A stretch of 45,053 bases of DNA. It comes from Escherichia phage vB_ecoS_OzMSK. The stretch lies in the sequence record PQ659294.1, one strand, 5' to 3'. Made by a program: the position numbers and the translations under genes. The notes under the pieces are model-generated. The model did no database searches, had not been told where the DNA came from, and was given only the letters and a program-made list of their open reading frames with translations. Positions 1 through 45,053 of the stretch are shown in pieces; the stretch's first letter is position 1, and each line of letters begins with the position of its first letter.

Positions 1-119
1 AGCAATATTGCTTCAGATGCAATGATGTTTTTGATTGTTGCGGATTGAGCAATTAAGTGGTGAGTGAGTGAATGAAAGATGGATGGACTACCATACAAGT
101 TGATTTTGATTCTTGCTAA

Positions 120-460
120 GCTACTTTCACGCATACACGTTATAAAAGTTATGCCGTGTAGATGCGCCAGCTCCCCGTTGGAATCATGTACGTCTATCAC
201 GCTAAATTACGCAATGGTTACATAATAATATCTATATATATCAACCATTTAGTACTATTATTATTATTATTATTATATACGCGTATATAATGTATATAGT
301 GGATATTGGATATTGCGATAGTTTTCTATGATTTTTTCCTACAAGTGTAGGAATTGGATGACACTGTAGGAATAAATAGGCATATATGGGCCAATGCTCC
401 ATGAAAGCCGATGTACAAGCTATACGCAGTGGTTACATTGAGCTATATCTGGGGTTTGGA
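120..460. repeat. AT-rich repeat region with palindrome ATATACGCGTATAT and (TTA)6; diverged copy of 25840..26150
   Basis: See the paired region; (TTA)6 at 258..275. Confidence 0.6.
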
Positions 461-571
461 ACTGAAAAGCGTAAATAAATTGAATTCAACCATAAATAAC
501 AATTGATAACATGTAACCTCAATGATACCATGCACCCATCTTAACGAGAGCAACCAATCAGGAGTATATCT

Positions 572-3707: not shown

Positions 3708-3785
3708 GCTCCGCTAGCTCAATTGGATAGCAGCAACGACCTTCTAAGTCGTAGGTTACTGGTTCGAGGCCAGTGCGGAGCGCCA
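3708..3785 (+). tRNA. tRNA-Arg, anticodon UCU, with encoded CCA
   Basis: Hand-folded cloverleaf: acceptor GCTCCGC/GCGGAGC (7 bp), U8, A14, GG in D-loop, anticodon stem ACGAC/GTCGT with loop CTTCTAA, 5-nt variable loop, T-stem ACTGG/CCAGT with loop TTCGAGG, discriminator G, CCA. Confidence 0.7.
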
Positions 3786-4293: not shown

Positions 4294-4800
4294 ATGAGCA
4301 AAGCAGCATTAAAGATTGGTGAGGGAAACTTCAAGGCGCTCTACAACAAGAAGTATGGCGATATTGCTATGGTCGCAATCAACCGTAAGTACACGCCCGA
4401 GGAGGTATTTGACTTTGCAGTGAGATACTTTTCATGGGCTGAGAATGAGGCAATCAAGGCCATTGAGACGGCTGCATTCCAGGGTGTGGTTAGCGAGAGC
4501 CTGGTTCACAAGCCTCGAGTGTTCACCTTAACTGGCCTGGCGCTATTTATGGGTGTCAATATCAATAGATTCGCTCGCTGGCGTACTGAGGCTGGTTACT
4601 CTGACGTGATGGAATTCATTGATAACGTAATTTATGAGCAGAAGTATCAGCTTGGCGTTGCAGGCATCATCAACTCCACAATCGTTGGTAAAGAGTTAGG
4701 GATTGATAAGCCGCAGGAGATTACCATTAGCAACAACTCCACAGCTAACGACGTTGATAGCATGAAGGAAGCGCTGGAGTCTGTGATTAGTAAGTTATAA
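4294..4800 (+). CDS. terminase small subunit (putative)
   Basis: 168-aa ORF immediately upstream of the large terminase; strong RBS AAGGAGG. Confidence 0.55.
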   Translation: MSKAALKIGEGNFKALYNKKYGDIAMVAINRKYTPEEVFDFAVRYFSWAENEAIKAIETAAFQGVVSESLVHKPRVFTLTGLALFMGVNINRFARWRTEAGYSDVMEFIDNVIYEQKYQLGVAGIINSTIVGKELGIDKPQEITISNNSTANDVDSMKEALESVISKL

Positions 4801-6384: not shown

Positions 6385-6432
6385 CCGTGATAAACTAAGC
6401 CCCTATATGGGGATTTTCTATTGGAGAAAAAC

Positions 6433-7701: not shown

Positions 7702-8386
7702 GAGCCAGGTAAACCGCAATCTTAGCATTGCGGTAACTGAGCTAATTTCAGCAATGAGGGAATCAGCAACAAGACTTAAAATTGATACTGCAGAGGAGCT
7801 GGAGGAAGAGGATGGATATCTTGACGGGATAATTGCGGCGCTGGTGGCTTCATTTATATCAACAATCCCAACCATAGGTGCAGCTATATACAGATACAAT
7901 AGCTCGCAATTTCTTGTGCTTGCAATCAAGACTGGCGGGAGGTCAAACCCTAGCGTTCTAGACCTTGAAGTTAATGGCATCAATGGCGATGAGCCGTGGT
8001 ATAATGATGACCTTAATCAGTGGGTTTACACCACAAACAAGTCAGTGATTAAATTGCTGAATAACATTAAAGATGACTTTTTGCAGACGGCGTCAACAAT
8101 CCAGAATGGGGACTACGTTAAGTTATCCGATAGGTACAAAACATACAGGAAGCGAACGGCAAACATTGCATCTGGAATTGTCTCAAGTCTGAACTCAACA
8201 CTTATGAGACGTAGGCTTGAGGATGCTGGTGTTAGCCGATACGTCTGGCATGGAATGCTAGATGAAAGAGAGCGCCAATCTCATATAGCGAGAGAAGGTC
8301 TTAGCTTTAAACTTGGTGGTGATGATATATTTCCAGGTCAAGAATACGGTTGTCGTTGCTGGTCAGTTCCTGATTGGGAATCATAA
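7658..8386 (+). CDS. head morphogenesis / minor head protein (SPP1 gp7 / Mu F-like, putative)
   Basis: 242-aa ORF overlapping the portal 3' end; GTG start with GAGGTG RBS. Confidence 0.55.
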   Translation: MKPVMTRWKYPQTIESQVNRNLSIAVTELISAMRESATRLKIDTAEELEEEDGYLDGIIAALVASFISTIPTIGAAIYRYNSSQFLVLAIKTGGRSNPSVLDLEVNGINGDEPWYNDDLNQWVYTTNKSVIKLLNNIKDDFLQTASTIQNGDYVKLSDRYKTYRKRTANIASGIVSSLNSTLMRRRLEDAGVSRYVWHGMLDERERQSHIAREGLSFKLGGDDIFPGQEYGCRCWSVPDWES

Positions 8387-14818: not shown

Positions 14819-17797
14819 ATGGCAACAAATGAATTAGCTGGAATCACACTAGCCGTAGACGTCTCGCAGGTAGACAGAGGTACGCAGTCCCTGCAGAAGT
14901 TCAGGCAGGCAAACCAGCAAGCCGCTTCCGGCATTAGTGAGTTCGTCAATGCTGAGCAGGTTGCTAAAAACCAGGCTAGAGATACCGCTCGCGCACTTGC
15001 TGAGCAACAAGCATCTTTAGCTAAATTGCAAACGGCTATTGACCCAACTGCGGCAAAGTTCCGTAAGCTGCAAGAGGCAGCGGTGGGTCTTGATAAGGCG
15101 TTTGCTGCTGGCGTAGTTCCTGATGAGGAGTTTTTCCGCTTAGGTGAGGCACTTGAAACGCAGAACGCAAAACTTGCTCGATCACGTGCAGCGCTAACTG
15201 AAGAGGGTAGGGCAGCAGCTCAAGCCGCAAAGGATAAGGCAAAGGCAAAGGCTGAAGCTGATAGGTTCATTGCGTCACTTGAGCGTCAGGCTCAGGCGGC
15301 AACATTGACGCGTGAGGAGTACTTAAAATTACAGGCTGCTCAGCTTGGCGTAAGTTCTCAGGCAGCGCCTATTATTGACAGAATCGCCGATGCATCACAG
15401 AAGGCAAACACCCAGCTAATTGCTCAGAGCAAGGCATTTCAACGCTCTGGATTAAGCGCGGGTCAATACAAGGCTGCAATCTCTCAATTGCCAGCGCAGA
15501 TTACAGACATTGGGACATCACTTGCTGGCGGCATTCCGATTTGGCTTATTGCAATTCAGCAAGGCGGGCAAATTAAGGATGCATTTGGAGGTATTGGTAA
15601 CACCTTTAGATTCGCGCTAGCAGCCTTAAATCCATTCAATGTTGCTGTTGGGGTTTTGGGTGGCGCGCTTGTTGCTCTAGGTATCGGTGCTGCCCAGGCA
15701 GAGAGTGAATTCAGAGCATTAAATTCTGCCATTGCGTTCTCAAACAACTCCACAATCGCATCAATCTCGCAGGTTAGAGATTTGGTTAGCTCTGTTTCTG
15801 ATGCTACTGATGCAACCAGAGGACTTGTGACTAGCATCGCAACAAGCCTTATTGAGCAAGGGAACCTTACGCTGACGCAGATTGACAAGATTACTAAATC
15901 TACCGCCAGATGGGCGCAGTTGACAGGTAAGGATGCAAAGGAAATTACTGGTTACTATAACCAGATTGCGAGCGACCCAATTCAAGGACTTGCTGATTTA
16001 GACAAGAGGTTTAACTTCCTTACACAGGGGCAGTTAACAACAATTGAAAGATTGAGAGAGACTAGGGGTGAGGTTGAAGCCGTAACTGCTGCTATTGATA
16101 TATTTAGCAAATCACAGGAGGCAAACCTTAACGATATTGCAGCCCAGCTTACTCCTCTTGAATTGGCCTGGAATGACTTCAGGAAGTACATATCTGATGT
16201 ATGGGATGCAATTAGTCGCAGAACGGTTGGGGCGCTAAACCTGTTTGTTGACGTAATCGCCGGAACAATTGAGCAAATTAGGGTCTTCATCAACCAGGGT
16301 GATGTGCTGATTGGTGAATTCGTAATTAGCGCAACACAGGCACTGCAGAACATCCCCGGCCTTGATGGTGTTGGTGATGATGTTATCAAGGGGCAGCAGA
16401 AGATTATCGATGCAGCTAAGAAGCAAAACATTGAGCTAGAGAAGTCTATCAAGGAGCGCGATGCCAGAATCAGAGAAGGAGAACTTGGTTACGTTACTCG
16501 CAGAGAAAATCAGAATACCAATGAGCAGTCAGGCACTGATGAGGAGTTTGCAAAAAGGAAGAAAGCACTTCAGGATGAACTTGATGCGATCAAGAAGAAC
16601 AGGAAAGAAGAAAATGGTAGGGTTAAAGAGCAAAGAGACCTTACAATTGGTTACGAATCTGGCGTACTTGCACTACAGGCACAACTCAAGGTGCTTCAGG
16701 AAAACAGGGATATTGGCGCAGTAATAAGCAATGAGCGCAAGCAGTATCTTCAGGAGGAGGCTAAATTCAGGATTCTTGAGCAGAGGCAACTTGATGGCTC
16801 AATTACCAAAGAGCAAGCAAGGCTTCTAATTGAAAAGGATAAAGTTCTTGCACTCGCAAGGCAGAAAGCTGAGTTAGGCGATCAGATTGTTTTGCAGGAG
16901 CGCGCCAATAAGTTAGCTGAAGATAACCGCAAGAAGATTCTTCAGATTAACAACGAAGCAAGCAATATTAATTTGGGGGCTGGTTTGTCATCTCGCGAGC
17001 AGCAGAGGGCAAGAGAGATTCAGGCTCTCCAGTCCAATCAGGTTAATGCTGGTGGCTCTCTTGATGATTTTGATTTTCAGCAATTACTGGAAGCAAGAAA
17101 GGAATACTACAAGCAGGAGGATAATCTTAGGTCTGATTGGCAAGCTGGCGTAACATCAACGCTTGCAGACTTGGCTGAGAAATATACAGACTACAATCAG
17201 ATAGCTAAGGATTTAACTGTTGCGGCATTCGATGGAATTACAGACCAGATTACAAACCTTGTAACCACTGGTGAGACCAACTTCAGGGAGTTCACCGCAA
17301 ACATCCTCAAAATGATTGCGAAGATTGCAACTCAGTTACTTTTGGTTAAGGCCATCGAATCAACATTGACTAGTTTTGGTGGTGGAGGAGGTAACGCGTT
17401 TGGCTCAATTGCTTCCGGGTTAGGTTTCGCTGGTGGCGGCTACACTGGTGATGGTGGAAAATATCAGCCAGCAGGAACGGTACACCGAGGTGAGTTTGTA
17501 TTCACAAAAGAAGCGACAAGCAGAATTGGTGTGAAAAACCTTTACGCACTAATGAAAGGTTACGCGAATGGCGGTGTTGTTGGTGGCCCTTCTGGTTATG
17601 CGAATGGTGGATTGGTTTCTGGAGGCGCAGATGTTAATGTTAGCGGGATTACTGTTAGCGTTAATAGTGGGATTGGAAGCAACCCAGAGCAGGCCAAGGC
17701 GCTGCAAAATGGCGTTAAGGCAATCGTAGCTGAAGAGATTGCTCAGTCATTCCAGCAGGGGGGCAGAGCTTATCAGTACCTTCGCGGATTCAACTAA
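14819..17797 (+). CDS. tail tape measure protein
   Basis: 992 aa; long Ala/Gln/Glu-rich predicted coiled coil, hydrophobic central segment, Gly-rich C-terminus; precedes M-L-K-I-J. Confidence 0.9.
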   Translation: MATNELAGITLAVDVSQVDRGTQSLQKFRQANQQAASGISEFVNAEQVAKNQARDTARALAEQQASLAKLQTAIDPTAAKFRKLQEAAVGLDKAFAAGVVPDEEFFRLGEALETQNAKLARSRAALTEEGRAAAQAAKDKAKAKAEADRFIASLERQAQAATLTREEYLKLQAAQLGVSSQAAPIIDRIADASQKANTQLIAQSKAFQRSGLSAGQYKAAISQLPAQITDIGTSLAGGIPIWLIAIQQGGQIKDAFGGIGNTFRFALAALNPFNVAVGVLGGALVALGIGAAQAESEFRALNSAIAFSNNSTIASISQVRDLVSSVSDATDATRGLVTSIATSLIEQGNLTLTQIDKITKSTARWAQLTGKDAKEITGYYNQIASDPIQGLADLDKRFNFLTQGQLTTIERLRETRGEVEAVTAAIDIFSKSQEANLNDIAAQLTPLELAWNDFRKYISDVWDAISRRTVGALNLFVDVIAGTIEQIRVFINQGDVLIGEFVISATQALQNIPGLDGVGDDVIKGQQKIIDAAKKQNIELEKSIKERDARIREGELGYVTRRENQNTNEQSGTDEEFAKRKKALQDELDAIKKNRKEENGRVKEQRDLTIGYESGVLALQAQLKVLQENRDIGAVISNERKQYLQEEAKFRILEQRQLDGSITKEQARLLIEKDKVLALARQKAELGDQIVLQERANKLAEDNRKKILQINNEASNINLGAGLSSREQQRAREIQALQSNQVNAGGSLDDFDFQQLLEARKEYYKQEDNLRSDWQAGVTSTLADLAEKYTDYNQIAKDLTVAAFDGITDQITNLVTTGETNFREFTANILKMIAKIATQLLLVKAIESTLTSFGGGGGNAFGSIASGLGFAGGGYTGDGGKYQPAGTVHRGEFVFTKEATSRIGVKNLYALMKGYANGGVVGGPSGYANGGLVSGGADVNVSGITVSVNSGIGSNPEQAKALQNGVKAIVAEEIAQSFQQGGRAYQYLRGFN

Positions 17798-23767: not shown

Positions 23768-23795
23768 AAAGCCCCTTAATTGGGGCTTTTCTTTT
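23768..23795. terminator. bidirectional terminator between J (plus) and the RBP candidate (minus)
   Basis: AAAGCCCCTTAATTGGGGCTTTT flanked by A-run and T-run. Confidence 0.65.
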
Positions 23796-24765
23796 AGTAG
23801 AAGTTTGGAATGAATGGAAGTTCCATTGATATGTTCGTGTCGAAAGGAAACCGAGCGCCTGATTGCGTCGAGTAGTTACCAATTACAGAGCCAGGAACAG
23901 CCCTAACAGAGCCTCCAGACATGCAGACCCCCTTGTACCTTAAGTTGTTATAACCTCCAGTAACTCTAGTCGTAGCGCCGCATCTAAGCAGCGGGAAGAA
24001 TCCACCATTTATTGACTGGTATCCATTATTGATCTGAATGAATCCACCAAGAACAAATGGGCGGCGAACACTTGAAAAAACAATCTGACCAGAACTATTC
24101 GACATTGTTAGTCCTGGTCCGGCTGGTGGGGGTTCATTTCTGAATATCACCAACTGAACATAAGTACTTGCCGCAATATCATCTGTACCTCCGTAGGTTA
24201 TATCCCTACACCATATTGTTGATCCATCTGATTCAAGTGATACGTTTGGATTATCCCACTTGCCGAATGGTATGCCGCTAACTGGTAGCGATGCCGCCCT
24301 GTTAACCTGTATTCCTCCAACCCATGCTGCTGACATTAGTCTAGAGTTGCTTGATATAGCAAGGAAATCAGTTGAGTTTTCAACGAGTATCCCTGGGCTT
24401 GATGAAGATGATGCTGGTAGAATTTCAAAGCAATTCCCAGCAAAGTCAATTATTCGACCTTTAGCACCATTGAAGTTGCTGAGCGTTATCCTACCAGTGC
24501 CGTCATTTACCTTTTGAAACCCGTTCATGTAATAAACTTCGGGTATAACATCATAAGCGTCAACGTGGACTGCCTTCGTTGGTATGCAGAAAGCCGTAGA
24601 ACCGGGGGACATTGTCAATCCAAAATCCCACGAACTTGCTGGGGTTGAAAGTCCATTGGTATTTATTGATCCAGTCACAGCAGGCGCCCTTAATCCTGCC
24701 GTTATTTCCATCGCTGGTCTTCCGTCATTGAGGTCAATCAATATACCCTGCGGCATTATTTCCAC
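23794..24765 (-). CDS. putative receptor-binding protein (323 aa)
   Basis: Gly/Ser/Asn/Thr-rich beta-type composition; convergent with J and co-transcribed downstream of a lipoprotein gene. Confidence 0.4.
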
Positions 24766-25001
24766 TCCTTACTGCCATGATCTGCAACAGATCCGCCGTA
24801 ACCTCCGCCAGCTTTGCTTTCAATGCCAGCGTATCGAATATCAACCTCACCAGCCGGAACAACCAAACCGCCTTTCCACTTAGCTACGCACACGCCGTTT
24901 GCTTGCGTTGCACACCAACCATCAGGACGGGGACCTGATGAACAACCAACTGCCATGATTACTGCTGCTGCGATGATTGCTGATTTGATGAAGTTATTCA
25001 T
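24756..25001 (-). CDS. small lipoprotein, superinfection-exclusion candidate (Cor/Llp-like)
   Basis: Signal peptide with lipobox AVGC ([23 protein letters not shown]); ATG at 25001 with AAGGA RBS; own class-A cassette upstream. Confidence 0.55.
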
Positions 25002-25036
25002 TTTGTATTCCTTAGTAATTTCGTTTCGATGGAGTA

Positions 25037-25082
25037 ATAGTATCGCATCCTTGCGATCAGTGTTTAGCAATTCGTGCTATTT
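25037..25082 (-). promoter_or_regulatory. class-A promoter-like cassette inside the 3' end of the methylase gene, ahead of the lipoprotein gene
   Basis: Minus-strand AAATAGCACGAATTGCTAAA then TACTAT at the conserved spacing; the motif encodes the methylase C-terminus INSTNC and its stop. Confidence 0.5.
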
Positions 25083-25756
25083 ATTCTTTCTTTCGCAATT
25101 TTAAAGTAATCCGAATCAAGCTCTATACCTATAAAGCTCCTTCTTGTATTGACGCATGCCACGCCAGTGGTTCCGCTACCCATGCAGTTATCAAGAACTG
25201 TATCCCCTTCGTTTGTATATGTATTAATCAGGTATTCCATTAACGCTACGGGCTTTTGGGTAGGGTGTGCGCCTGTTTCTGTTGCGAATTCAAGAATTGT
25301 GGTTGGGTATCCAGTAACTGTTTGTCTTGTTGTCTTACTGCACTCATTGTAATTTCCGCGATTGGTTCTTGAAACCATCACATCCGTTTGCCTTGTCCCT
25401 TGCGGGTTGTATGTTGGCTGATTTGCATAAAACACCGCTATATCTTCAGTGTTTATAAGTGGTTGCTTTTTCGCATTTAGATGTCCAGTAGGTTTTGATT
25501 TTTTCCAAATCCAGCAATATTTAAATTCCTTTAGATTGCTTGTTATCAGCGCGGACGTGAAAGGCTGTGCGCAAGTAAGAACAACCGCCCCACGGCTTAT
25601 GCGGCGGTATTGACGCCAAAGTAACCGCAAATCGATGATGACATCCCATCTGTTTCTCGTTGTTCCATACGGCAAATCACATAAAATAAGGTCTATACTC
25701 TTGTCTGGGATATCATTCATCATCTCTAAGCAGTCGCCATTCATTAATTTAATCAT
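25064..25756 (-). CDS. dam: DNA N6-adenine methyltransferase (Dam-like)
   Basis: Motif IV DLPYG (ILCDLPYGT) precedes motif I-like [10 protein letters not shown], as in N6-adenine methyltransferases; 230 aa. Confidence 0.8.
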
Positions 25757-25790: not shown

Positions 25791-25835
25791 ATAATACAGC
25801 CGCCGCTGCGGAATGTCTTTAGCTATTCGTGCTAT
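25791..25835 (-). promoter_or_regulatory. class-A promoter-like cassette upstream of the methylase operon
   Basis: Minus-strand AATAGCACGAATAGCTAAA then TATTATTACC and a conserved leader. Confidence 0.5.
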
Positions 25836-25839
25836 TGTA

Positions 25840-26150
25840 TACGCGTAATCGATGTAACTCGATGTATACAATTTCATCCGCGGAAAATGGTATACGCGCT
25901 GTTACGCCAATTTACGCATTAGTTACATTGAAATATCTATATATATCAACCTTTTACTCTTATTATTATTATTATACATATTACTGTGTATATCATGTAA
26001 CTACTTCTATAGAGCGTTCCGGTTATAATTTTAATATCATGTGGATTTATACAGTATTGCGTGGCAGCTATACTAATGCACCCCCTGCAAGAAACGGTAT
26101 ACACGATATACACGATGGTTACATTTAGCTATAGCTGGGATGAGATGCCA
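25840..26150. repeat. AT-rich repeat region with palindromes (TACGCGTA, GTATAC) and (TTA)n; diverged copy of window region ~120..460
   Basis: Shared blocks ACGCA(A/T)TGGTTACAT...ATATCTATATATATCAACC...TTATTATTATTAT and GGTTACATT(G/T)AGCTATA(T/G)CTGGG in both regions. Confidence 0.6.
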
Positions 26151-26297
26151 TTTTACGTAACAAGTGGCAATGCCTACACGGAATTACAATGATTCGCACG
26201 TAAACTTAAATCAACGATTGGCAAAACCAATTGGACTGGTTACCGTGCTGAATATATAGTTAACCCATCTAAAGCAAACAACCAGAGAGATACAGAA

Positions 26298-27461: not shown

Positions 27462-27505
27462 ATAGCACTAATTGCTAAAAACAAAATTGAAAGATTGGGT
27501 ATGAT
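27460..27505 (+). promoter_or_regulatory. class-A promoter-like cassette (AAATAGCACTAATTGCTAAA, then TATGAT)
   Basis: Motif overlaps the upstream stop codon; -10-like hexamer at the conserved spacing. Confidence 0.5.
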
Positions 27506-27686: not shown

Positions 27687-28336
27687 TGCAAATTTCAGAG
27701 TCATGCAAATCAATTTTAAACGCGCTGCACACTGCTAAATCGCTATTCGCAAAGGCTGAAAAGTCTAAGCAGAACTCACACCTTAAGAATAAATACGCTA
27801 CCCTAGAAGACGTTTTGGCGGCCGTTGAGCCTGGACTTGATGAGTGCGGATTGGTGATGTTCCAGAGTGTGCTTGATGATGAACAAACTAATCGCATGAA
27901 GGTTGAGACAAAGCTATTTCACGCAGAGTCAGGAGAATGGGTTAGCTTCTTGATGATTGTACCAATCAGTAAGAATGATGCGCAAGGTTACGGCTCAGCT
28001 TTAACATACGCTCGACGCTACGGAATCACGGCAGCTTTAGGTCTTAGCCAGGCGGATGATGATGGTAATCTAGCAGCTAAAGGTGTTAAAGACTTTAAGA
28101 GAGAACTCGAGAAATGCAATAATCTAGATGAGCTTCGTAATGTATGGAAAGAAGCCAAGCAATCACTTGATGCGGCAGGATGGAAGGTTTTTGAGCCTCA
28201 CATTATCGAGAGAAAAGCAGAAATCGAAGCAAATGCGATGACTGGCTTTAACCCAGCAACACCAAAGAAAGTTGCAGAAAAAAGTAGTCCTGAAGAAAAG
28301 ATTAAAGTAGAATCACAACAAATCGACACGTTCTAA
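27686..28336 (+). CDS. Erf-like single-strand annealing protein (putative)
   Basis: 216 aa; sequence GYGSALTYARRYG resembles ERF-family annealing proteins; sits between exonuclease and SSB. Confidence 0.5.
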   Translation: MQISESCKSILNALHTAKSLFAKAEKSKQNSHLKNKYATLEDVLAAVEPGLDECGLVMFQSVLDDEQTNRMKVETKLFHAESGEWVSFLMIVPISKNDAQGYGSALTYARRYGITAALGLSQADDDGNLAAKGVKDFKRELEKCNNLDELRNVWKEAKQSLDAAGWKVFEPHIIERKAEIEANAMTGFNPATPKKVAEKSSPEEKIKVESQQIDTF

Positions 28337-28377
28337 ATTTAACGGGGCTTCGGCCCCAACAATAGAGAGATAAAAAC

Positions 28378-28812
28378 ATGCACGTAATTACCGGTCAGAT
28401 TCGCCGCGCTCCGTTCACCAAAGAAGGTCAAAACGCCAATGGTAACTGGAAGATGTTTGCGGTTGATTTGAGTGAGAGATACAAGGATAAAGATGGTCAA
28501 ACTCAGTACACAAACTACCGCGCAGTACTTTTCGCCAAAGAGTCGATGCTGGATTGGTATAACGAAGCATTTCAGGAAGGTAAAGTTGTCAGCCTAAGCG
28601 CCGAGAGTTTGTCGGTTGATGTTCGCGATAAAGATGGCAAGACTTACGTTACAGTTAATATGAATAATCCTCGACTGGAATTTAGTCAGCGAGGTGATTC
28701 AGCGACACAACAGCAGATGCAAAACCAACAGCGTCAGCAACAGAAGCAGCAGCAACAACAGCGACAACAGCCACAACAGCAAAGTCAATTTGACGACGAC
28801 ATTCCTTTTTGA
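28378..28812 (+). CDS. ssb: single-stranded DNA-binding protein
   Basis: OB-fold-like N-terminal region, Gln-rich linker and acidic C-terminal tip DDDIPF typical of bacterial-type SSBs. Confidence 0.8.
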   Translation: MHVITGQIRRAPFTKEGQNANGNWKMFAVDLSERYKDKDGQTQYTNYRAVLFAKESMLDWYNEAFQEGKVVSLSAESLSVDVRDKDGKTYVTVNMNNPRLEFSQRGDSATQQQMQNQQRQQQKQQQQQRQQPQQQSQFDDDIPF

Positions 28813-28847: not shown

Positions 28848-31298
28848 TTAATAAATATTTACATCTGGAGAAATTCCAACGCAAGTCCAGCGCGAGAACT
28901 TGGCATCATAAACGAATGACATTCCAATTTGTCTCCCCTCAGATGGAGTTGTGAATGAGCCAACTCTAAACTTATTGCTAAATGAAACGGATGGACGCCG
29001 GCCGCCTGAAAGGTTGTAAATTATGAAGTCTATCCTCTGTGCATCTCTTGCGTTATCCTGAACATCAATAACTACAGGACTTGAATCAATTACAACGGTT
29101 GCAAGACTTGTTCTTAGTGGGTTAAATAGAATACTACCACCAGATAGCTGAACCCTTTTTTGAACGGGGTTAGAAGAATCCGTGTACAACCCTGTGTTTA
29201 TATTATACAAAGCCTCCCATGAATTCAGTTTTGAGTCATCAATCACTGTTGCATGCTGCCCAAATAGTATAGTCCCTTCTACATGGTTTCCTGAAGCTCC
29301 ATTATAAAAATCAAAACCAGAAGCTGATCCACCAACAAACCTATTAGCTCTAGCTCCGTTAACTTGAATTGATGGAGACTGAAAACCTGACTTCAGGCCA
29401 TTGAACAAGTTTCCTGTCGCCGTCTTCCTAAGAACGACGTCACCACCAGAGTTGACCTCAAGGTCGCAACCAATAACAGTGTTAGTTACTGCTGTTATGC
29501 CTAGGTCTGACTCATGACCGAAAGAAAACCCATACTTATTTCCCTCGCTGGTTCCACCAATAAATGTCGTATTACTGCAGAATGTAGCCTCAATTCCTGA
29601 TTCTGTTACATGCTCGCAAGTTGGGTTAATAAAAAGATCTGCAGATGTGCCGCGGAAGTTCACAGCGCCAGCCTCTGCGTCAATTAATATGCCGTACGTA
29701 GGCGTCGTTGTGAAGGTCTCAACGTTACCAGAGCACACAAAGTTATTATGCACGCATAGCTGAGTCCACCAGCAGTGTAAACCAGCCCTTCTAATGTTCG
29801 TAGCCATTAGGTTGTCAAAGCATGATGATATGACACCCCTTAATGAAAAGCCATCACTAGCATACCCATTCCCATCGACAATGATGTTGCTCATATATGA
29901 GTTGTATGCCCAATAATCTAGGTTTACATCCCTATGATCCATTTGGATGACGTAATCATGAGGTCCGCTAGTTAGTGAGATTCTTGCGCCTTTCTCACCG
30001 ATAATTGTTGCTGGCCTCAGAAAGTTTAATGGCTGAGATGTAAGATAATTACCTTTAGGAATATGTATAGCAATAGCGTTGTTTCTAGATGCCTCAACAG
30101 CGGCAAGCAATGCCTGAGTATCATCTGTTACACCATCACCAACAGCGCCAAAGTCCTTCTTAATATCGACATGAGTAAGTAAAGCGTTTACCTCTGGCTT
30201 TGAGTAAACATCAAGATTTGTTCTTGCTGCTGACTTATTTGCAACATCAGAGAAATTCAATGATTTTTGAAAAGTCTCATTTTTTGAATAAACATCAAGA
30301 TTTGTTCTTGCTTCTGACTTATTTGCAACATCAGAGAAATTCAATGATTTTTGAAAAGTCTCATTTTTTGAATAAACATCAAGTAAGTTTCTAGCCCTCG
30401 ATGCCGTAGCTCCACCTCCGGACTTGCCAGCCTCAACCATCACCATTTCCCTACCTGGTGCATAAACCCTGCTTCCGGGCGCTCCCACAAACTGAATGTA
30501 AATCTCCCTGCTATACTGGTTGCTTGTTGAAGATTGGCCTACAACTCGCAAGGAGTGCGTGGTTGTATTGCTTGACTTTGATATTACCTGAATGCATAAA
30601 GCAGCAATTGATGTTCCAAATGTTGAGATTATGTCATTTGGAGCATTTATCATTGATGAAACGTTAACCATATAAAGGCCACCGGATTTAAAAACAAATT
30701 CCTGCCAATCAAAATTGCTTATCAATGGCGTAGTGTCTGTCGCCAATCCATATCCGGCAAGAGTTACCAACGTTCCGGCATCCCCGGCGTTATTAATTGC
30801 TTTAATCGTCTGATCTCTTGCTGCAGTGGTCGTGTCTCTTGCACTAATAGCAGTAGCGGCGCTCTCTTCGGCAGCAATCTGGCTAGCAAGAGCCTCAGCA
30901 GCTCCAGTGGTGGATTGTTTTGCAAGCTGCTCGAAGAGAGGCCAGTCGAAAGTGTCTTGACCAATAAATTGCAACAATCCTTCGATTGATGTCTCCTTTG
31001 ACTGGTAGTAACGCAAAGTCTCTGCTACATCCTGAGCCAACCCCTGAACGGTAATTCCATCGTGCGCAAGAATTGCATAACCAGTTCCGGAAGGAACAGT
31101 TTCAGAGTTAGGGTTGTAAACATTAATCTGAGTATCGCTGATGATTTCAGAGATGGTATAAATCTTCAGGGGGCTGGTTTTAAAAATAATGGTTGCACCT
31201 ACGCGAATAAGTGTAAGCGGTGCTTTCCATGTTGTACCCACGCCAGTTACCTCGCCATTTGCGGCCAGCGACGCTGTTCCTAAGTCATAAATTGCCAT
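28848..31298 (-). CDS. lateral tail fibre / tailspike with right-handed beta-helix (pectate-lyase-like) domain
   Basis: 816 aa from ATG 31298 (GGAG RBS); motif DIKKDFGAVGDGVTDDTQAL typical of pectate-lyase-type tailspikes; internal 28-aa tandem repeats. Confidence 0.75.
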   Translation of the reverse strand: MAIYDLGTASLAANGEVTGVGTTWKAPLTLIRVGATIIFKTSPLKIYTISEIISDTQINVYNPNSETVPSGTGYAILAHDGITVQGLAQDVAETLRYYQSKETSIEGLLQFIGQDTFDWPLFEQLAKQSTTGAAEALASQIAAEESAATAISARDTTTAARDQTIKAINNAGDAGTLVTLAGYGLATDTTPLISNFDWQEFVFKSGGLYMVNVSSMINAPNDIISTFGTSIAALCIQVISKSSNTTTHSLRVVGQSSTSNQYSREIYIQFVGAPGSRVYAPGREMVMVEAGKSGGGATASRARNLLDVYSKNETFQKSLNFSDVANKSEARTNLDVYSKNETFQKSLNFSDVANKSAARTNLDVYSKPEVNALLTHVDIKKDFGAVGDGVTDDTQALLAAVEASRNNAIAIHIPKGNYLTSQPLNFLRPATIIGEKGARISLTSGPHDYVIQMDHRDVNLDYWAYNSYMSNIIVDGNGYASDGFSLRGVISSCFDNLMATNIRRAGLHCWWTQLCVHNNFVCSGNVETFTTTPTYGILIDAEAGAVNFRGTSADLFINPTCEHVTESGIEATFCSNTTFIGGTSEGNKYGFSFGHESDLGITAVTNTVIGCDLEVNSGGDVVLRKTATGNLFNGLKSGFQSPSIQVNGARANRFVGGSASGFDFYNGASGNHVEGTILFGQHATVIDDSKLNSWEALYNINTGLYTDSSNPVQKRVQLSGGSILFNPLRTSLATVVIDSSPVVIDVQDNARDAQRIDFIIYNLSGGRRPSVSFSNKFRVGSFTTPSEGRQIGMSFVYDAKFSRWTCVGISPDVNIY
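30199..30385. repeat. 84-bp direct tandem repeat (two copies plus a partial third) inside the tail fibre gene
   Basis: AAACATCAAG recurs at 30206, 30290 and 30374; copies differ at about one position; encodes ARTNLDVYSKNETFQKSLNFSDVANKSE twice. Confidence 0.85.
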
Positions 31299-31318
31299 TG
31301 TGTAAATTCTCCATTTGT

Positions 31319-31338
31319 AAAATAGCACGAATTGCTAA
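31319..31338 (+). promoter_or_regulatory. class-A motif copy in plus orientation, 21 nt upstream of the minus-strand tail fibre start
   Basis: AAATAGCACGAATTGCTAAG; the only copy oriented against the adjacent downstream gene. Confidence 0.4.
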
Positions 31339-31363: not shown

Positions 31364-31386
31364 TAAAAAAACCTCCCAAAGGAGGT
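31364..31386 (-). terminator. rho-independent terminator for the primase transcript
   Basis: Minus strand reads AACCTCCTTTGGGAGGTTTTTTT. Confidence 0.65.
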
Positions 31387-32312
31387 TAGTCTATTAATTC
31401 GCTTGCTTTGTATATTCGCTTTCTTATGCCAGACTTGAAAAAATTATCATCATTTGGCATTACAACATCAAGATTGCGATCATCAGCAACGGCAAGTAAA
31501 TCAAAAGAGTGGCGAGTACAAGCGACGCGTAACTTGTAGTTTCTAAGCGCATAAGCAACCATTTCCATGTTGTAGCTGGAGTGGCAAACAAGCACGCAGC
31601 GGTTGCCACTAGCAAGATGAACGCGAACACCATCAATCCAATTATCGACCAGATAAGCGTACTCACTATCCTTAAAGGCACCAATAACAGCCACAGATTG
31701 GCGAGTATAATCTTTTGCAGCATAACTAACATCTCCCTCTTCATTTATAAAAATTACATTGCACATCTCATCTGACACGCCGTCACTATAAGCCATAAAG
31801 CACGGCACTGCGTGTATTAGTTCACCAGATTTAGCCCTACCAACATCAAAGCCGAACTCGCTATAGATACCCTCGTATATACTGAGTGGAGTTGATTCTA
31901 CTCTTTCCGTCCTTCCCATTATCTCTAAGCATCTTTCGTGGTCAATCTGAGCGCCCATTTTGTATGGTGATGTTCTTGAAGCTCTTTTGTTTGCTTTTGA
32001 TATAACCTCTACTGGAACTAGATTCAGCCAATCACCAAGCGTATCTATTGTTTCACTATAACTCATTCCGGAACACTTCATTACCCAACCAACACCAGAA
32101 TCATTTCCGCACTGGTTGCATATTGCTGCGCCATTTCCCTTTTCCTGACCTAACTCATCAGTGAAGCGAAACCTATCCCTTCCAAAGCAGTAAGGGCACG
32201 GACCATGTTTCTTGCTGAGATTCTCCTTTGTCCATCCAAGGTGCGATGAGTAGAAATCACTCCACATTCCCTTCATTTTTGCTATCACTTCGTTCTTATC
32301 ATGGTGACTCAT
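31386..32312 (-). CDS. DNA primase (zinc-binding)
   Basis: Cys-rich N-terminal segment CPYC...CNQC (GPCPYCFGRDRF...AICNQCGN); ATG 32312 with GGAGG RBS. Confidence 0.65.
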   Translation of the reverse strand: MSHHDKNEVIAKMKGMWSDFYSSHLGWTKENLSKKHGPCPYCFGRDRFRFTDELGQEKGNGAAICNQCGNDSGVGWVMKCSGMSYSETIDTLGDWLNLVPVEVISKANKRASRTSPYKMGAQIDHERCLEIMGRTERVESTPLSIYEGIYSEFGFDVGRAKSGELIHAVPCFMAYSDGVSDEMCNVIFINEEGDVSYAAKDYTRQSVAVIGAFKDSEYAYLVDNWIDGVRVHLASGNRCVLVCHSSYNMEMVAYALRNYKLRVACTRHSFDLLAVADDRNLDVVMPNDDNFFKSGIRKRIYKASELID

Positions 32313-32337
32313 AGTTACCTCCATAAACAATAAATGC

Positions 32338-32383
32338 ACTATACACAATGTATAGCGCCACTGTTTATCAATTCGTGCTATTT
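32338..32383 (-). promoter_or_regulatory. class-A promoter-like cassette upstream of primase
   Basis: Minus-strand AAATAGCACGAATTGATAAA then TATAGT; motif overlaps the stop of the upstream gene. Confidence 0.5.
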
Positions 32384-32860
32384 CCCTTGCTCTTTAGCTT
32401 TTCGCGCTGCCTCGTTAGCGGCCTTAATCTTGCGCCATGATCGACACTCTGTCTTGGTGGCTAATTCAGCCTCAGTAACAACACGCAGCATGTGACGCTT
32501 TTTGCAACGAAGAGTTAGCGGCTTCCCGTTACCGTCGAATTGCAAATCTGGTCGGCAGAATGTGGCGCGAAAACCTTCTCCATTTCGCTTGTAGTAGTTG
32601 TGCGACAGCTGGGCGCCACGTGCCGATATCATGCCGCGCTTAAACCATTGTTCTACAGCCTGTGGTGTTACCTTTAACTGCTTTGCGATATTCGCCTTTG
32701 TGCCGAAGAAATCAAGAACTATCTCCAGGCGTGCCCGTAACCCTGCTCTTACTTCATCCTTTAAAACGTAGTAACCTGAAGGTCGTTTACGTTGCTTTTT
32801 GTCTTCAGTGCGGATAGTTCCGTTGTTGCCGTTAATGGTTCTCTTGTCGACTGTATTCAT
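32378..32860 (-). CDS. putative DNA-binding protein (160 aa, basic, HTH-like segment)
   Basis: Highly basic; segment IAKQLKVTPQAVEQWFKRG resembles a helix-turn-helix. Confidence 0.4.
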   Translation of the reverse strand: MNTVDKRTINGNNGTIRTEDKKQRKRPSGYYVLKDEVRAGLRARLEIVLDFFGTKANIAKQLKVTPQAVEQWFKRGMISARGAQLSHNYYKRNGEGFRATFCRPDLQFDGNGKPLTLRCKKRHMLRVVTEAELATKTECRSWRKIKAANEAARKAKEQGK

Positions 32861-34956: not shown

Positions 34957-35372
34957 ATATTACAGACAAAGTTGATTACATTGAGTTTTACCCGGGCCCG
35001 GTTAAGTCATGTCCTAAAGAGGATGACGAACAAATCTTTTGTTCTGATTGGGTTAAGTATAACTACCCGGATATGGTATTTTTCCACTGCGTGAATGAGG
35101 GTAAGAAAACCATTGGTCAAGCAAGAAAGGACCAGGCTAAAGGATTGCTTAAAGGGGTTTCGGACTGCTTATTCCTTATACCTGAATCACTGCGAGGCAA
35201 ATACCCATTTGGCGCTATAGAGCTAAAGAGAGCAGGTAAAACGCAAGCTAGCCCAGTTAGCGATGAGCAGAAGTCATTCCTAAAAAGCGTAAGAGAATCA
35301 GGTGGCTTCTCCGCAGTAGCCTATGGCAGAGGTGGCTTTCTTGCAGCATTCGCAGAGATGATTCGAAAATAG
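34953..35372 (+). CDS. VRR-NUC domain nuclease (PD-(D/E)XK fold)
   Basis: 139 aa; motif DCLFLIPE...GAIELKRAGK matches the D..E.K signature; ATGA overlap with helicase. Confidence 0.55.
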   Translation: MNITDKVDYIEFYPGPVKSCPKEDDEQIFCSDWVKYNYPDMVFFHCVNEGKKTIGQARKDQAKGLLKGVSDCLFLIPESLRGKYPFGAIELKRAGKTQASPVSDEQKSFLKSVRESGGFSAVAYGRGGFLAAFAEMIRK

Positions 35373-35412
35373 CACGAATTGCTAAAGACGAATCGGTGAG
35401 GTGGTGTATTAT
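35367..35412 (+). promoter_or_regulatory. class-A promoter-like cassette (first of a tandem pair)
   Basis: AAATAGCACGAATTGCTAAA then TATTAT; downstream ~165 nt has no plausible ORF. Confidence 0.5.
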
Positions 35413-35576
35413 CAACTCATCGAAACGAAACACTCACAAAAAAGGTGAGAAGTTGCAAACGTAGGCCGGAGCAACGAAAGACGTTTCAAAATATGATGTG
35501 ACAAACCCATGAGAAAGGAAGTTGCAAACGTAGGCCGGAGCAACGAAAATCACATCATAATAAATTATAACTTAGT
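35413..35576 (+). ncRNA. candidate small non-coding RNA or iteron region with two copies of a 29-bp element
   Basis: AGTTGCAAACGTAGGCCGGAGCAACGAAA at 35451..35479 and 35520..35548; each is an inverted repeat GTTGC..GCAAC around GGCCGG; no ORF longer than 8 codons. Confidence 0.3.
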
Positions 35577-35622
35577 AAATAGCACGAATTGCTAAAGAGG
35601 AATCGGTGAGGTGGTGTATTAT
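35577..35622 (+). promoter_or_regulatory. class-A promoter-like cassette (second of the tandem pair)
   Basis: Near-identical to 35367..35412 including GAATCGGTGAGGTGGTGTATTATCA. Confidence 0.5.
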
Positions 35623-35658
35623 CACTTCATCGAAACGAGACGCAGAGAGAGAAATAAA

Positions 35659-38607: not shown

Positions 38608-39161
38608 AAATGACTAAATTATTTATCCTTAATGGCCCAGCTGGAGTTGGCAAGGACACTATAGCGGATATGATGGTTGAGACTGGTGTCGCAAAAGAAA
38701 AGGTATCATTCAAGTCACCAATATTTAGAGTTGCAAAAGGAATGCTATCAAGCGATGAATTTGATGAATTCATCAAGAATTACGACAATAGAGACTATAA
38801 GGAATCACCTCATAGATTTCTTGTCGGTATGACAGTTCGTGAATTTATGATTTGGATTAGCGAGTCTGTAATGAAGCCAGCCTTTGGTGATGATGTTTTC
38901 GGTAAAAGGCTAGCGCAGTCACTTGGTGATGGCTGCTACATTTGCGCTGACGGTGGATTTGCTAGCGAGATTAAGCCACTGATCGACGCTGGTGTTGAGG
39001 TCACGTTAATCAGATTGCATAGGGCAGGGTACACATTTGATGGCGATAGTCGCTCATACATTCACGGGGTGTGCGCAAGAGAAATTGATGTTCGTGTTGT
39101 TGATTGTGATATTAATGGAACATCAGCATTGGTAAGGCACGTAATAAATAGCACAAATTGA
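38604..39161 (+). CDS. deoxynucleoside monophosphate kinase (P-loop kinase, putative)
   Basis: N-terminal P-loop ILNGPAGVGKDT; size and motif typical of phage dNMP kinases; C-terminus INSTN is encoded by a class-A motif copy. Confidence 0.55.
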   Translation: MKMTKLFILNGPAGVGKDTIADMMVETGVAKEKVSFKSPIFRVAKGMLSSDEFDEFIKNYDNRDYKESPHRFLVGMTVREFMIWISESVMKPAFGDDVFGKRLAQSLGDGCYICADGGFASEIKPLIDAGVEVTLIRLHRAGYTFDGDSRSYIHGVCAREIDVRVVDCDINGTSALVRHVINSTN

Positions 39162-39166
39162 TAAAG
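39147..39166 (+). promoter_or_regulatory. class-A motif copy (AAATAGCACAAATTGATAAA) overlapping the kinase stop
   Basis: Motif variant followed by the conserved leader ..ACATCGAAACGAG.. Confidence 0.4.
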
Positions 39167-41383: not shown

Positions 41384-42967
41384 TCACCCCAGCAGTCGTG
41401 GATTAATGTAAACTTTATCACCAATCAGGCACGTATAGTTTTTCTCATCAAGCATTGGTAGTAAGTGGTCTTTAATCTTCGTCATTACTCCCGCTTGACC
41501 CTCGAACGGCTTAACCTTGCGAGCAGCTTCATATAGAGACCGGATGCCTACTACGCCTTTCCCATTTTTTACTTGCTTAATCAGAATATCAATCAGCTTA
41601 TTCATCTCTGCATTGTCGCCAGCGTGACCCGCAGCGTTGGCAGATGACAAATAAGTCTTGCTAAGTTCCTGGAACATAATTACAGCTTCCTGCATTGTAT
41701 CAAGCTCAATTTCTCTCGACTTCTGAGGGCTACCGCCATTTGGGTTGAACCAGTTACGCACAGTGTGAAGAACCGCCGCAATCCTGATTGCCTGCTTATC
41801 GAACTTACCCAACGCGCCTCGCAACATTGTGTGTGAATACTTCCCGCCGTCAGCAAGGTGCGGTTCCATTTCCTGACGAGCGCGGTTGAGATATTTCATT
41901 GCTGAATTACTAACTGTCAACTTAACTTCTTGCTCATTCATTATCTCGTGAACTAAACGGAAGTAATCAGCCTTCAACCCGGCATCAATTGGCTCATAAG
42001 TCGATTCGCCATTTTCATCAACGAATACACGCTCGCCCAGGAGTGACTTTTCACGTACAAGCAGGAAACGCTCAGATACACCGATACCACGCGCGCCAGC
42101 GTTCATGATAGCGTTGATTGTCTCATCCTGCGCAATTACAGAGATGCAACCCATAGCTACGAAGCTCATGTTGTTTTCAGCGTTAGCACGAGCGATAGAT
42201 ACGTTGCCAGCATCCCATGCCTTCAGTACAAGCTCGCTGTTCGTTTTCTTTGATCCGTCACCATAGGTCATGCCAAGTAGTGAGTTTACACTCGTTGCCT
42301 CATCCGAGATTACTGCAAAGTTACCCTGACGATTGTTTATTCGCGCAAGACCTTCCGGTGTGGTATCTGAAACCGGGAAAACGATATCGCATAGTTTCTC
42401 GAGCTTTTCCTCAAGATCTTCTTTCTCCTCAAAAAGCGATTTCATCTCAGATGGTGACTTTTCCTGCTTCATCTCTTTGGATAACGCAGATAGTTTAGCC
42501 ATAATCTTTTTGCGCTCGCGCTTTCGAACTTCATTCAGTCGCTGAGTCTCGGCAATCATTGGCGCAATAGAAAGTGAGTTAATTGCTGATTTACCAGTCG
42601 ATGGTGGCTGACTCGTTACGACGTAAAGCGAGGTTGGCTGCTGAGTTCCGTGATACTCTACGGTAAAACGTCCAAGCATGGCAGCGGAAATACACCCCAG
42701 GAAGTGCATGTATGCGGACGACTCCGGGAATTGCACGCTCCGAGCAATGTTAGCTGACAGCTTACCAACAACATCAATATCATTTCCGAGTGATATTACA
42801 GGGTACTTATCATTTGCCGCATCAATCTCGACAGGAGCCTTCCAGAATGATTGAGACTGGCGATAGCCATTTGCATTAATAGCGACGCGCAAAGGTGGAA
42901 GGTTGTCTGCGGCAGCAATTGCCATAACCTGTTCAACAGATAGTTTATCTTCGTTGAAATCAAACAT
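41384..42967 (-). CDS. P-loop NTPase of unknown function (527 aa; possible replication-associated ATPase)
   Basis: Walker A-like PPSTGKS and Walker B-like AVISDE; GGAGAG RBS; N- and C-termini are paralogous to the remnant at 1093..1512. Confidence 0.55.
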   Translation of the reverse strand: MFDFNEDKLSVEQVMAIAAADNLPPLRVAINANGYRQSQSFWKAPVEIDAANDKYPVISLGNDIDVVGKLSANIARSVQFPESSAYMHFLGCISAAMLGRFTVEYHGTQQPTSLYVVTSQPPSTGKSAINSLSIAPMIAETQRLNEVRKRERKKIMAKLSALSKEMKQEKSPSEMKSLFEEKEDLEEKLEKLCDIVFPVSDTTPEGLARINNRQGNFAVISDEATSVNSLLGMTYGDGSKKTNSELVLKAWDAGNVSIARANAENNMSFVAMGCISVIAQDETINAIMNAGARGIGVSERFLLVREKSLLGERVFVDENGESTYEPIDAGLKADYFRLVHEIMNEQEVKLTVSNSAMKYLNRARQEMEPHLADGGKYSHTMLRGALGKFDKQAIRIAAVLHTVRNWFNPNGGSPQKSREIELDTMQEAVIMFQELSKTYLSSANAAGHAGDNAEMNKLIDILIKQVKNGKGVVGIRSLYEAARKVKPFEGQAGVMTKIKDHLLPMLDEKNYTCLIGDKVYINPRLLG

Positions 42968-44109: not shown

Positions 44110-44155
44110 AATATACAGGAAAAGCCCCTGAAGGGTTTTAGCAATTCGTGCTATT
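44110..44155 (-). promoter_or_regulatory. class-A promoter-like cassette with an embedded hairpin
   Basis: Minus-strand AATAGCACGAATTGCTAAA, then CCCTTCAGGGG hairpin, then TATATT. Confidence 0.45.
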
Positions 44156-44732: not shown

Positions 44733-44742
44733 ATCTCAATCC

Positions 44743-44922
44743 TCAAATAAATGGTAGGCATTCGGCGCATCCAAGTCCATCACAGCACAGGAATTCATCC
44801 TCTGACTGGAATTGCTTAGCCAAATCTATGTCTAACTTTCCGCGCAACACAAGGTCGGTGTAATCTTCGTTAAGCTCAATCAGTGCGCAATCGTGGCGCA
44901 ATTCATCTTTATCAATCTTCAT
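44743..44922 (-). CDS. possible small Cys-rich protein (59 aa)
   Basis: Hand-translated, no internal stops; GAGGG RBS; C-terminal CCDGLGCAEC; preceded by a degenerate class-A cassette. Confidence 0.35.
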   Translation of the reverse strand: MKIDKDELRHDCALIELNEDYTDLVLRGKLDIDLAKQFQSEDEFLCCDGLGCAECLPFI

Positions 44923-44949
44923 ATCTATACCCTCGTTGTTGGTGAGTTA

Positions 44950-44995
44950 ACTATAGCCTCGCCACCAGCACATGTCTTTAGCAAAAAGTGCTATT
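44950..44995 (-). promoter_or_regulatory. degenerate class-A cassette (AATAGCACTTTTTGCTAAA, then TATAGT)
   Basis: Motif variant with -10-like hexamer at the conserved spacing. Confidence 0.4.
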
Positions 44996-45053
44996 CGTTA
45001 GATTTATGTATTGTTGCATATATTGCAATGATTCACATGATTATTGCACATAC

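Follow-up and report, generated by a model that had tools for sequence, protein, structure and literature searches.

The Rep proteins of the Staphylococcus aureus pathogenicity islands (SaPIs) have been described as AAA+ initiator helicases of the MCM clade, which load themselves and bind 6-12 short iterons through a C-terminal winged helix. SaPI origins span about 320-370 bp, their iterons flank an AT-rich centre, at least two per side and in opposite directions, and iteron specificity differs between related elements. A precedent for two separate origins bound by one phage initiator is provided by oriL and oriR of phage SPP1. In this study, we analysed a stretch of 45,053 nt from Escherichia phage vB_ecoS_OzMSK (sequence record PQ659294.1; referred to below as the window), which is covered over its whole length by record MW057918 (megablast) and represents the circularly permuted whole genome of an Rtp-like member of the Drexlerviridae, the T1-like phages, here called Msk. 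The first letter of the window corresponds to position 36,772 of the Msk record (MW057918), coincides with the first letter of the Rtp record and falls about 23 nt inside that of T1. T1 belongs to the seven classic T phages; phages related to it commonly contaminate laboratories and fermentations, and they are also candidates for phage therapy. Papers on the replication of T1-like phages state that neither an origin nor iterons were found, and our literature search for origin data gave nothing useful. The window contains two non-coding regions of about 330 bp each, modules A and B, in which repeated 7-bp words (GTTACRY/TATACRY), phased at 9-11 bp and present in both orientations, flank a 57-bp AT-rich core (Table 1). 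Based on the comparisons presented here we propose, with moderate confidence, that A and B are two anciently duplicated iteron-type replication origins.

The Msk modules match the SaPI origins in their iteron clusters, in size, in their central AT-rich region and in having opposed iterons as putative binding sites, and the phage also encodes a DUF3987 protein that is predicted from its structural model to be MCM-like with a C-terminal winged helix. However, the SaPI origin is single and lies immediately downstream of rep, whereas the copies of Msk are two in number and dispersed, A being 2.2 kb and B about 15 kb away from the helicase gene. Furthermore, Msk is a virulent Gram-negative siphophage, and its modules additionally carry a second block of words as well as, in the core, an IHF consensus and a run of trinucleotides. 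SPP1 is, like Msk, a pac-type siphophage, and it has two origins and an early theta phase followed by recombination-driven concatemer formation with a phage exonuclease, annealase and SSB. In contrast, the SPP1 initiator G38P is not a helicase and works with a separate loader and a DnaB-type helicase, oriL is located inside the initiator gene, and the SPP1 origins are without sequence relationship to the Msk modules. In phage P4, two dispersed iteron clusters (TGTTCACC), ori and crr, are bound by the C-terminal winged helix of the alpha protein, and neither is dispensable in cis; alpha combines primase, SF3 helicase and binding protein in a single fusion, and the two copies are about 4.5 kb apart. 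The word TGTTCAC found in TLS-type relatives of Msk resembles the P4 iteron, whereas primase and MCM-like helicase are separate here and the copies are 19-26 kb apart. With headful pac sites (P22, SPP1, P1 and the T1 pac) copy A has in common that it abuts the mapped start of the packaging series; it differs in that the terminus lies outside the blocks shared with B, that no terminus has been reported at B and that separate, better conserved A-specific repeats surround the cut. The modules are best filed under the iteron/AT-rich kind of origin served by a self-loading MCM-like helicase, of which they would be unusual members in being duplicated, dispersed and, in one copy, abutting pac.

A first-pass annotation of this DNA had described the two regions as diverged copies sharing ordered blocks, and all of the blocks that it listed are present where it placed them. 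The first block reads ACGCAATGGTTACAT...ATATCTATATATATCAACC...(TTA)n in A (209-275) and ACGCATTAGTTACAT, the same 19-mer and (TTA)n in B (25914-25974), and the second reads GGTTACATTGAGCTATATCTGGG in A (431-453) and GGTTACATTTAGCTATAGCTGGG in B (26117-26139). When positions 1-571 were searched against the whole genome (blastn), the only strong second match paired 182-453 with 25886-26139 (66.5% identity over 278 nt, E=1.2e-21), and in a MAFFT multiple alignment the homology extends approximately to the module limits given in Table 1. Both regions are AT-rich with simple repeats (module A has an AT content of 64%, the genome of 56%) and in T1 the similarity between A and B is mostly (TA)n-like, which would be in agreement with low-complexity DNA or a neutral duplication relic without any specific function. 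This explanation is effectively refuted: the Smith-Waterman score of 64 compares with 14.8 +/- 2.7 for a Markov-shuffled, composition-matched B (z=18), the ordered blocks are conserved across subfamilies, the non-coding B is conserved at or above the level of coding sequence, and the word changes in both copies together.

The gene context described earlier for the two regions was also found. Plus-strand genes start after each of them, at 572 after A and at 26298 after B, and B comes after a minus-strand block (23794-25756) that encodes a membrane protein, a lipoprotein and an N6/N4 DNA methylase. Since the genome is circularly permuted, the region holding A is in truth the intergenic stretch formed by 44733-45053 and 1-571. 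The first genes downstream encode a DUF7174 product after A and a 64-aa protein after B, neither of which carries a DNA-binding annotation, and T1 and TLS lack the 64-aa gene in front of recE. No open reading frame (ORF) of at least 60 aa was found in module A, and the mechanical ORF at 25829-26128 over B has no counterpart in A. The annotated Rtp46 (132 aa, Rtp 28260-28658) starts within the module B copy of Rtp; its Msk equivalent is the 64-aa ORF starting at 26298 (Rtp 28464), and the Rtp46 start is probably over-extended into non-coding, origin-like DNA. An Rfam scan of the whole genome gave a tRNA-Arg (match at 3708-3782) as the sole match and no known structured RNA in A or B. This tRNA gene (anticodon TCT, 3708-3785) is located among small early genes, as in related phages.

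The pair is not confined to Msk. Rtp carries it at 132-495 and 28005-28374 (E=1.5e-37), EC3a does so as well (E=5e-14), diverged versions are present in T1 and TLS, and both copies were detected by BLAST in Rogue1- and Sd1-type phages. As the pair is found across family members, the duplication is older than the radiation of the family. We aligned seven A copies and nine B copies from different phages. The B copies are 81-95% identical to each other, whereas the A copies are 51-71% identical to each other and about 57-66% identical to B copies. Despite this drift, the A copies keep the heptamers and an invariant 20-mer, and because they have diverged so strongly, the elements common to all copies are likely to be functional. 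Module B of Msk shares 90-93% identity with that of Rtp or EC3a, equalling or exceeding the neighbouring genes (recE 79-86%, erf 85-89%), and this conservation holds though the left-hand gene differs in Rtp and EC3a. In EC3a, the best match to module A of Msk is EC3a's own B copy. Judged from these alignments, A and B are real, ancient copies of one DNA module that have been maintained, and they constitute, by the same evidence, a conserved and functionally constrained non-coding pair. An IMG/VR match to the 19-mer (L013) was rejected as unrelated sequence. The methylase gene (25064-25756, minus strand) that borders B has no counterpart there in Rtp or EC3a, and EC3a has an 'anti-repressor' at its position; the edge of module B looks like a hotspot of gene replacement.

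Table 1. Positions in the 45,053-nt window of modules A and B, their elements and associated features
Feature	Position	Strand	Remarks
Module A	128..470	none	Non-coding, paralogous, beside packaging end; candidate origin copy A
A plus heptamer array	194..223	+	TATCACG, ATTACGC (206), GTTACAT (217); 10-11 bp apart
Core A, candidate DNA-unwinding element	224..280	none	57 bp, 87.7% AT
Invariant 20-mer AATATCTATATATATCAACC and IHF consensus TATCAACCATTTA (239-251)	227..251	+	In core A
(TTA)6 run	258..275	+	Inside core A
A minus heptamers	281..296	-	GCGTATA (281), ATGTATA (290); far side of core
A block 2	411..453	+	TGTACAA, TATACGC (421), GTTACAT (432), then GAGCTATATCTGG
Module B	25838..26161	none	Non-coding, paralogous, upstream of recE-erf-ssb operon; candidate origin copy B
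B left array	25843..25868	-	Three heptamers (25843, 25852, 25862), 9-10 bp apart
B plus array	25891..25928	+	TATACGC, GTTACGC, TTTACGC, GTTACAT; spacing 10, 10, 11
Core B, candidate DNA-unwinding element	25929..25985	none	57 bp, 84.2% AT
Invariant 20-mer and IHF consensus TATCAACCTTTTA (25944-25956)	25932..25956	+	In core B
(TTA)5 run	25960..25974	+	Inside core B
B minus heptamers	25986..26001	-	GTGTATA, ATGTAAC; far side of core
B block 2	26098..26139	+	TATACAC, TATACAC, GTTACAT (spacing 9, 11), then palindrome AGCTATAGCT (26127-26136)
pac cleavage zone	91..107	+	First headful start, packaged rightward
A-specific pac-proximal element, right part	1..90	none	TTGCA/TGCAAT repeats; absent from B
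A-specific pac-proximal element, left part	44997..45053	none	Continues over window ends
Promoter-like site, first rightward gene after A	503..531	+	TTGATA-17-TACCAT with TG; downstream of module
Promoter-like site, operon after B	26232..26260	+	TGGACT-17-TATAGT; downstream of module
Leftward promoter region with 21-nt repeat TAGCACGAATAGCTA (25820-25834)	25791..25837	-	Borders B on left
DUF3987 MCM-like helicase, candidate initiator/iteron reader	41384..42967	-	T1 gp09 homologue; Pfam E=1.7e-41
Primase (zinc ribbon, primase-helicase type)	31386..32348	-	Rtp51 / T1 gp24 annotation

The elements follow the same order in both modules. Three minus-oriented words (consensus YGTAWM, corresponding to GTTACRY/TATACRY on the other strand) are followed by three or four plus-oriented words 10-11 bp apart, by the 57-bp core with the 20-mer AATATCTATATATATCAACC, the IHF consensus TATCAACCWTTTA and (TTA)5-6, and by two minus-oriented words; about 100 bp beyond, two or three plus-oriented words precede the palindrome AGCTATAGCT, and one further minus-oriented word comes last. 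The layout immediately around the core is three plus words, core and two minus words in A and four plus words, core and two minus words in B, and the left-hand triplet of B is also present in Rtp, EC3a and T1. Msk A has nine and Msk B 17 heptamer matches, where about one per strand would be expected. The four 150-bp windows that are richest in heptamers genome-wide all fall into the modules (B1 with nine, B2 with six, A1 with five and A2 with four), all others holding at most three, and the Poisson expectation for a 150-bp window with at least nine heptamers is 2e-6. Genome-wide, the 57-bp duplex of lowest stability (223-279; nearest-neighbour dG -51.0, with a mean of -75.6 and an sd of 4.7) coincides nearly exactly with core A, and the second least stable one (25927-25983; dG -54.3) nearly exactly with core B. 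The 20-mer is identical in five of the seven aligned A copies, the exceptions being those of Rtp and EC3a, and in all nine B copies. Three genome positions match the strict IHF pattern (WATCAANNNNTTR), and two of these are the putative sites in the cores, which have an AT-rich 5' flank.

The palindromes that had been noted in both regions are present (ATATACGCGTATAT at 275-288, TACGCGTA at 278-285 and 25840-25847, and four of the seven GTATAC sequences of the genome in B), but palindromy is not kept in relatives; the palindromes arise because oppositely oriented 7-bp words abut. The TTA runs are likewise real, and are the only two (TTA)>=3 runs in the genome. The slipped-strand variation suggested for them, however, is not what the relatives show. 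(TTA)5 is found in seven of nine B orthologues with the spacing held, the change in TTA count of a B outlier is offset to a net length change of 1 nt, and although the unit number varies from 4 to 7 among A orthologues, CAACC and the heptamer after it are kept 33-35 nt apart across genera, changes in TTA count being compensated by neighbouring bases. In these alignments the run behaves as a fixed-length, probably easily melted spacer and not as a contingency repeat. A more distant relative (L027, see below) has a (CAA)13 run at 6385-6428 in the AT core of its iteron region, a positional analogue of the (TTA)n run of Msk. DnaA boxes (TTWTNCACA) were found neither in A nor in B, the only one genome-wide being at 17530, and a DnaA-dependent, oriC-like origin was rejected for lack of such a box in the modules. 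GC skew tracks the direction of transcription and gave no origin signal.

The identity of the repeated word differs between lineages. Copies from Msk, Rtp, EC3a and T1 contain GTTAC 2-9 times and TGTTC 0-1 times each, whereas A and B of TLS have no GTTAC and 6-7 TGTTC each, and the B copy of a TLS-like phage has five TGTTC. Since the word differs among phages that all infect E. coli, it is most likely read by a phage-encoded protein. Resemblances of the heptamer to host-factor sites (direct repeats of the OmpR/RstA/ArcA type, TyrR, NarL and H-NS) were considered and dropped, as the word varies among phages of the same host. Four more distant relatives, contigs with homologues of the DUF3987 helicase (L024-L027), have iterons of other sequence in a large intergenic region beside replication genes. 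In L024 the word is TGTTCTC, with 12 of 13 copies in one 420-bp intergenic stretch and arrays with a 10-bp period; in L025 it is GGGCGAA (six of nine copies in the iteron region), in L026 GGGGTAA (four of five, two in plus and then two in minus orientation around an AT centre) and in L027 CTTACA (10 of 20, together with the (CAA)13 run). The module of L025, L026 and L027 lies less than 300 bp upstream of a series consisting of a small gene, the helicase, a primase, a second helicase and recE.

The DUF3987 MCM-like helicase is our candidate for the initiator. Its confident AlphaFold (AF2) model (predicted local distance difference test, pLDDT, 86; predicted template modelling score, pTM, 0.85) contains a C-terminal winged helix at residues 451-521, and the best Foldseek matches of this model are MCM subunits (E 1.8e-6 to 1e-3) and Orc1/Cdc6. 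At the sequence level, a PDB search returned nothing significant and NCBIfam gave no match. DUF3987 proteins have been described as MCM-related replicative helicases that have a winged helix-turn-helix at the C-terminus. For the T1 primase, the annotation notes a similarity to alpha primases of the P4 type. A replication origin had been among the functions suggested by the first-pass annotation, and it is the one favoured by the iterons, the least stable AT core, the IHF consensus, the co-variation of the word and the encoded MCM-like helicase. From these features we infer binding, melting, initiation, a role for IHF and the identity of the word-reading protein. A phage protein would bind the phased words to the left and right of the core, with the DUF3987 helicase, through its winged helix, as the prime candidate. 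Host IHF may bend the core at TATCAACCWTTTA, and the core, as the least stable duplex in the genome, would melt. The helicase would then load itself, the primase would prime and a host polymerase would extend. At a later stage, RecE, Erf and SSB, which are encoded just downstream of B, would build concatemers, and terminase would cut at the separate pac element to the left of A, followed by rightward packaging.

Several of our observations weigh against this interpretation. The helicase of L024 is 78% identical to that of Msk and has a nearly identical winged helix, yet the L024 iterons read TGTTCTC, and the T1 helicase is just 58% identical to that of Msk, yet T1 uses GTTAC. Helicase similarity therefore does not track iteron type, and the reader may be another protein, for example one of the small proteins encoded just upstream. 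When the residues of the winged helices were compared, no residue pattern followed iteron type; R524 (in NPRL), tried as a specificity residue, fitted Msk, T1, TLS and L024 and failed on L027, which has CTTACAT and no Arg. The small proteins encoded upstream of the helicase were considered as a conserved partner, but they gave neither a Pfam family nor a convincing alignment. The helicase gene is also not adjacent to either module, as it is to the origin in SaPIs, and the orientation of the iterons around the core varies by lineage, being the same on both sides in L024. The IHF consensus is lineage-restricted, as it is missing from Rtp A, EC3a A, T1 and TLS. Copy A is far less conserved than B, with fewer and weaker heptamers, and the AT cores with their TATA-like hexamers could equally be promoters.

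The last point leads to a rival explanation, which appears possible though on balance unlikely, namely that the modules are early-gene control regions. In this case, the heptamers would form operator or enhancer arrays for a phage transcription factor that, together with IHF, switches the rightward (572, 26298) and leftward operons, and the AT core would be a pair of divergent sigma-70 promoters or an UP element. Both modules indeed lie immediately upstream of promoter-like sites and first genes, and in Msk both are located between divergently transcribed blocks. A leftward TATACA-16-AATAAT match is found at the same place in both cores, in-silico promoters have been annotated by others in the B core of EC3a, and the spacers of the two downstream promoters both contain a GTAACC/GGTTACC word. 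A Cro-like helix-turn-helix (HTH) regulator is encoded in the phage genome, and the co-variation of the word fits any phage-encoded binder. However, a scan with the sigma-70 consensus revealed no enrichment of promoter-like matches in the modules over shuffled sequences (2 vs 3.4 in A and 6 vs 3.5 +/- 1.8 in B). The near-consensus promoters lie outside the module, downstream of it, and near-consensus TTGACT...TATAAT promoters hold the corresponding position in T1, TLS-like and Klebsiella relatives. In addition, a target has already been proposed for the Cro-like regulator, namely the TAGCA-N5-TGCTA repeat, and module B of TLS is not between divergent genes, as it follows the terminator of the tail genes. 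Some 10-17 phased words around the least stable duplex, with a fast-changing specificity and a constant MCM-like helicase gene, are more typical of origins. The regulatory hub considered in the first-pass annotation is a live rival, though one whose best promoters lie downstream of the modules. The two interpretations are compatible and not exclusive, as origins can be activated by transcription. With regard to transcription start-site data, we found nothing useful in the literature on T1-like phages.

A different repeated non-coding motif, the 21-nt repeat (aaATAGCACnnnTTGnTAAAA) described for TLS, is found close to both modules, bordering B on its left (25820-25834) and upstream of A (44972-44996). 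Unlike A and B, it is a single palindromic site that precedes many genes, is identical in TLS and Msk and lies outside the shared module. In its palindromic form, TAGCACGAATTGCTA, this known repeat of T1-like phages occurs in 11 copies, where 0.15 would be expected. Plus-strand copies are located at 1854-1868, 2900-2914, 27463-27477, 31323-31337, 35370-35384, 35580-35594 and 39149-39163, and minus-strand copies at 25065-25079, 25820-25834, 32366-32380 and 44139-44153. A TATnAT -10-like hexamer is found 22-23 nt past TTGCTA in five copies on the plus strand and in the one at 25820-25834 on the minus strand, and this spacing would place the centre of the palindrome near -42, a geometry of class II activators and not that of a -35 element. 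As its binder, the Cro-like HTH protein (32378-32860) suggests itself as a candidate, and Rtp52 has reportedly been proposed in this role. An intergenic stretch of about 210 bp is tandemly duplicated at 35356-35641 (35362-35431 vs 35572-35641, 91%; 35449-35493 vs 35518-35562, 87%), which yields two successive promoter regions with the 21-nt repeat.

A packaging site had been suggested as a further function. The PhageTerm analysis of virion reads published with this phage (MSK) has indicated headful (pac) packaging, with one forward terminus at 36,862 (window position 91), none on the reverse strand and none reported near B. The record of phage SU57, for which the authors chose the opening end on the basis of PhageTerm output together with a coverage step, starts at what corresponds to window position ~107, and that of T1, which opens at the packaging end, carries an annotated terminal repeat of 2.8 kb. 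The cut is located 20-40 bp to the left of module A, outside the shared blocks and within an A-specific element that has no counterpart in B, and the shared blocks are therefore not the pac site; what can be retained from the suggestion is that the terminus adjoins copy A. The A-specific element (about 44990-45053 and 1-127) is 92-93% identical to Rtp and EC3a, which exceeds the value for module A and makes it the best conserved part of the region, it contains four copies of ATTGCA/TGCAAT, where 0.29 would be expected, and it is common with T1 positions 1-60. The matching position at B holds the leftward promoter with the 21-nt repeat. Published work has not pinned down the pac recognition site of T1-like phages, and the family's actual site is probably the A-specific element.

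It is conceivable, though in our opinion very unlikely, that the modules themselves are related to packaging, the heptamer arrays being sites for the small terminase subunit (encoded at 4294-4800; GP3_package), A a part of the pac recognition site and B a second, uncut or weak pac-like site. The short distance (about 25-40 bp) of the mapped terminus from the left edge of A and the fact that packaging runs rightward through A would fit such a role, as would the repeats flanking an IHF site, which resemble terminase-binding regions such as lambda cosB and P1 pac. In published opinion, pac of the T1-like phages has been placed in the untranslated region that holds A. However, PhageTerm gave a single forward terminus and none near B, B is without the A-specific sequence that surrounds the cut, and this highly conserved sequence, with its own repeats shared with the T1 end, adjoins module A, which is least conserved. 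Moreover, B, the copy without a terminus, is better conserved and richer in heptamers, and in L025-L027 the iteron region is tied to replication genes. Eight Chi sites (GCTGGTGG) are present in the genome, where about 1.4 would be expected for its length, and Rtp and EC3a have three each. Those of Msk are at 7840, 9930, 11849, 17048, 17429 and 24122 on the plus strand and at 29766 and 44962 on the minus strand; the late region holds the six plus-strand sites, and the pac cut has one of the minus-strand sites about 180 bp upstream of it.

Finally, A and B might be two dispersed paralogous origins of the Drexlerviridae that differ in function and whose word co-evolves with the MCM-like self-loading helicase, a reading that we consider distinctly unlikely in this specific form. 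B would then be the main origin, its firing coupled to the recombination operon, and A, being fused to pac, would couple firing (or helicase or IHF bending) to the first terminase cut, so that one nucleoprotein complex would set both the start of replication and the start of the packaging series. Alternatively, by analogy with P4 ori and crr, A and B would pair in cis. The interpretation of A and B as duplicated iteron-type origins makes the long-missing origin of the T1 family directly testable, with two candidates of about 330 bp, a candidate initiator and binding words that differ between lineages. If it is true, the SaPI-type mechanism of a self-loading helicase and iterons also operates in virulent Gram-negative phages, of which it would cover a large family, the presence of two large non-coding regions in every family member is explained, and the origin is separated from a pac site that is only tens of bp away. 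It would also provide parts for T1-based replicons and for origin-targeted defences or engineering.

Two further duplications were seen in the window. The tail-fibre gene (28848-31328, minus strand) contains an 84-nt tandem duplication in perfect register at 30199-30366, the two copies of which are 98% identical and which adds 28 in-frame codons. The small ORFs 2108-2308 and 2301-2528 are adjacent and have the same first 50 nt (80% identical; GTGAATAAGATGATTAC...), which suggests a tandem duplication of a small early gene.

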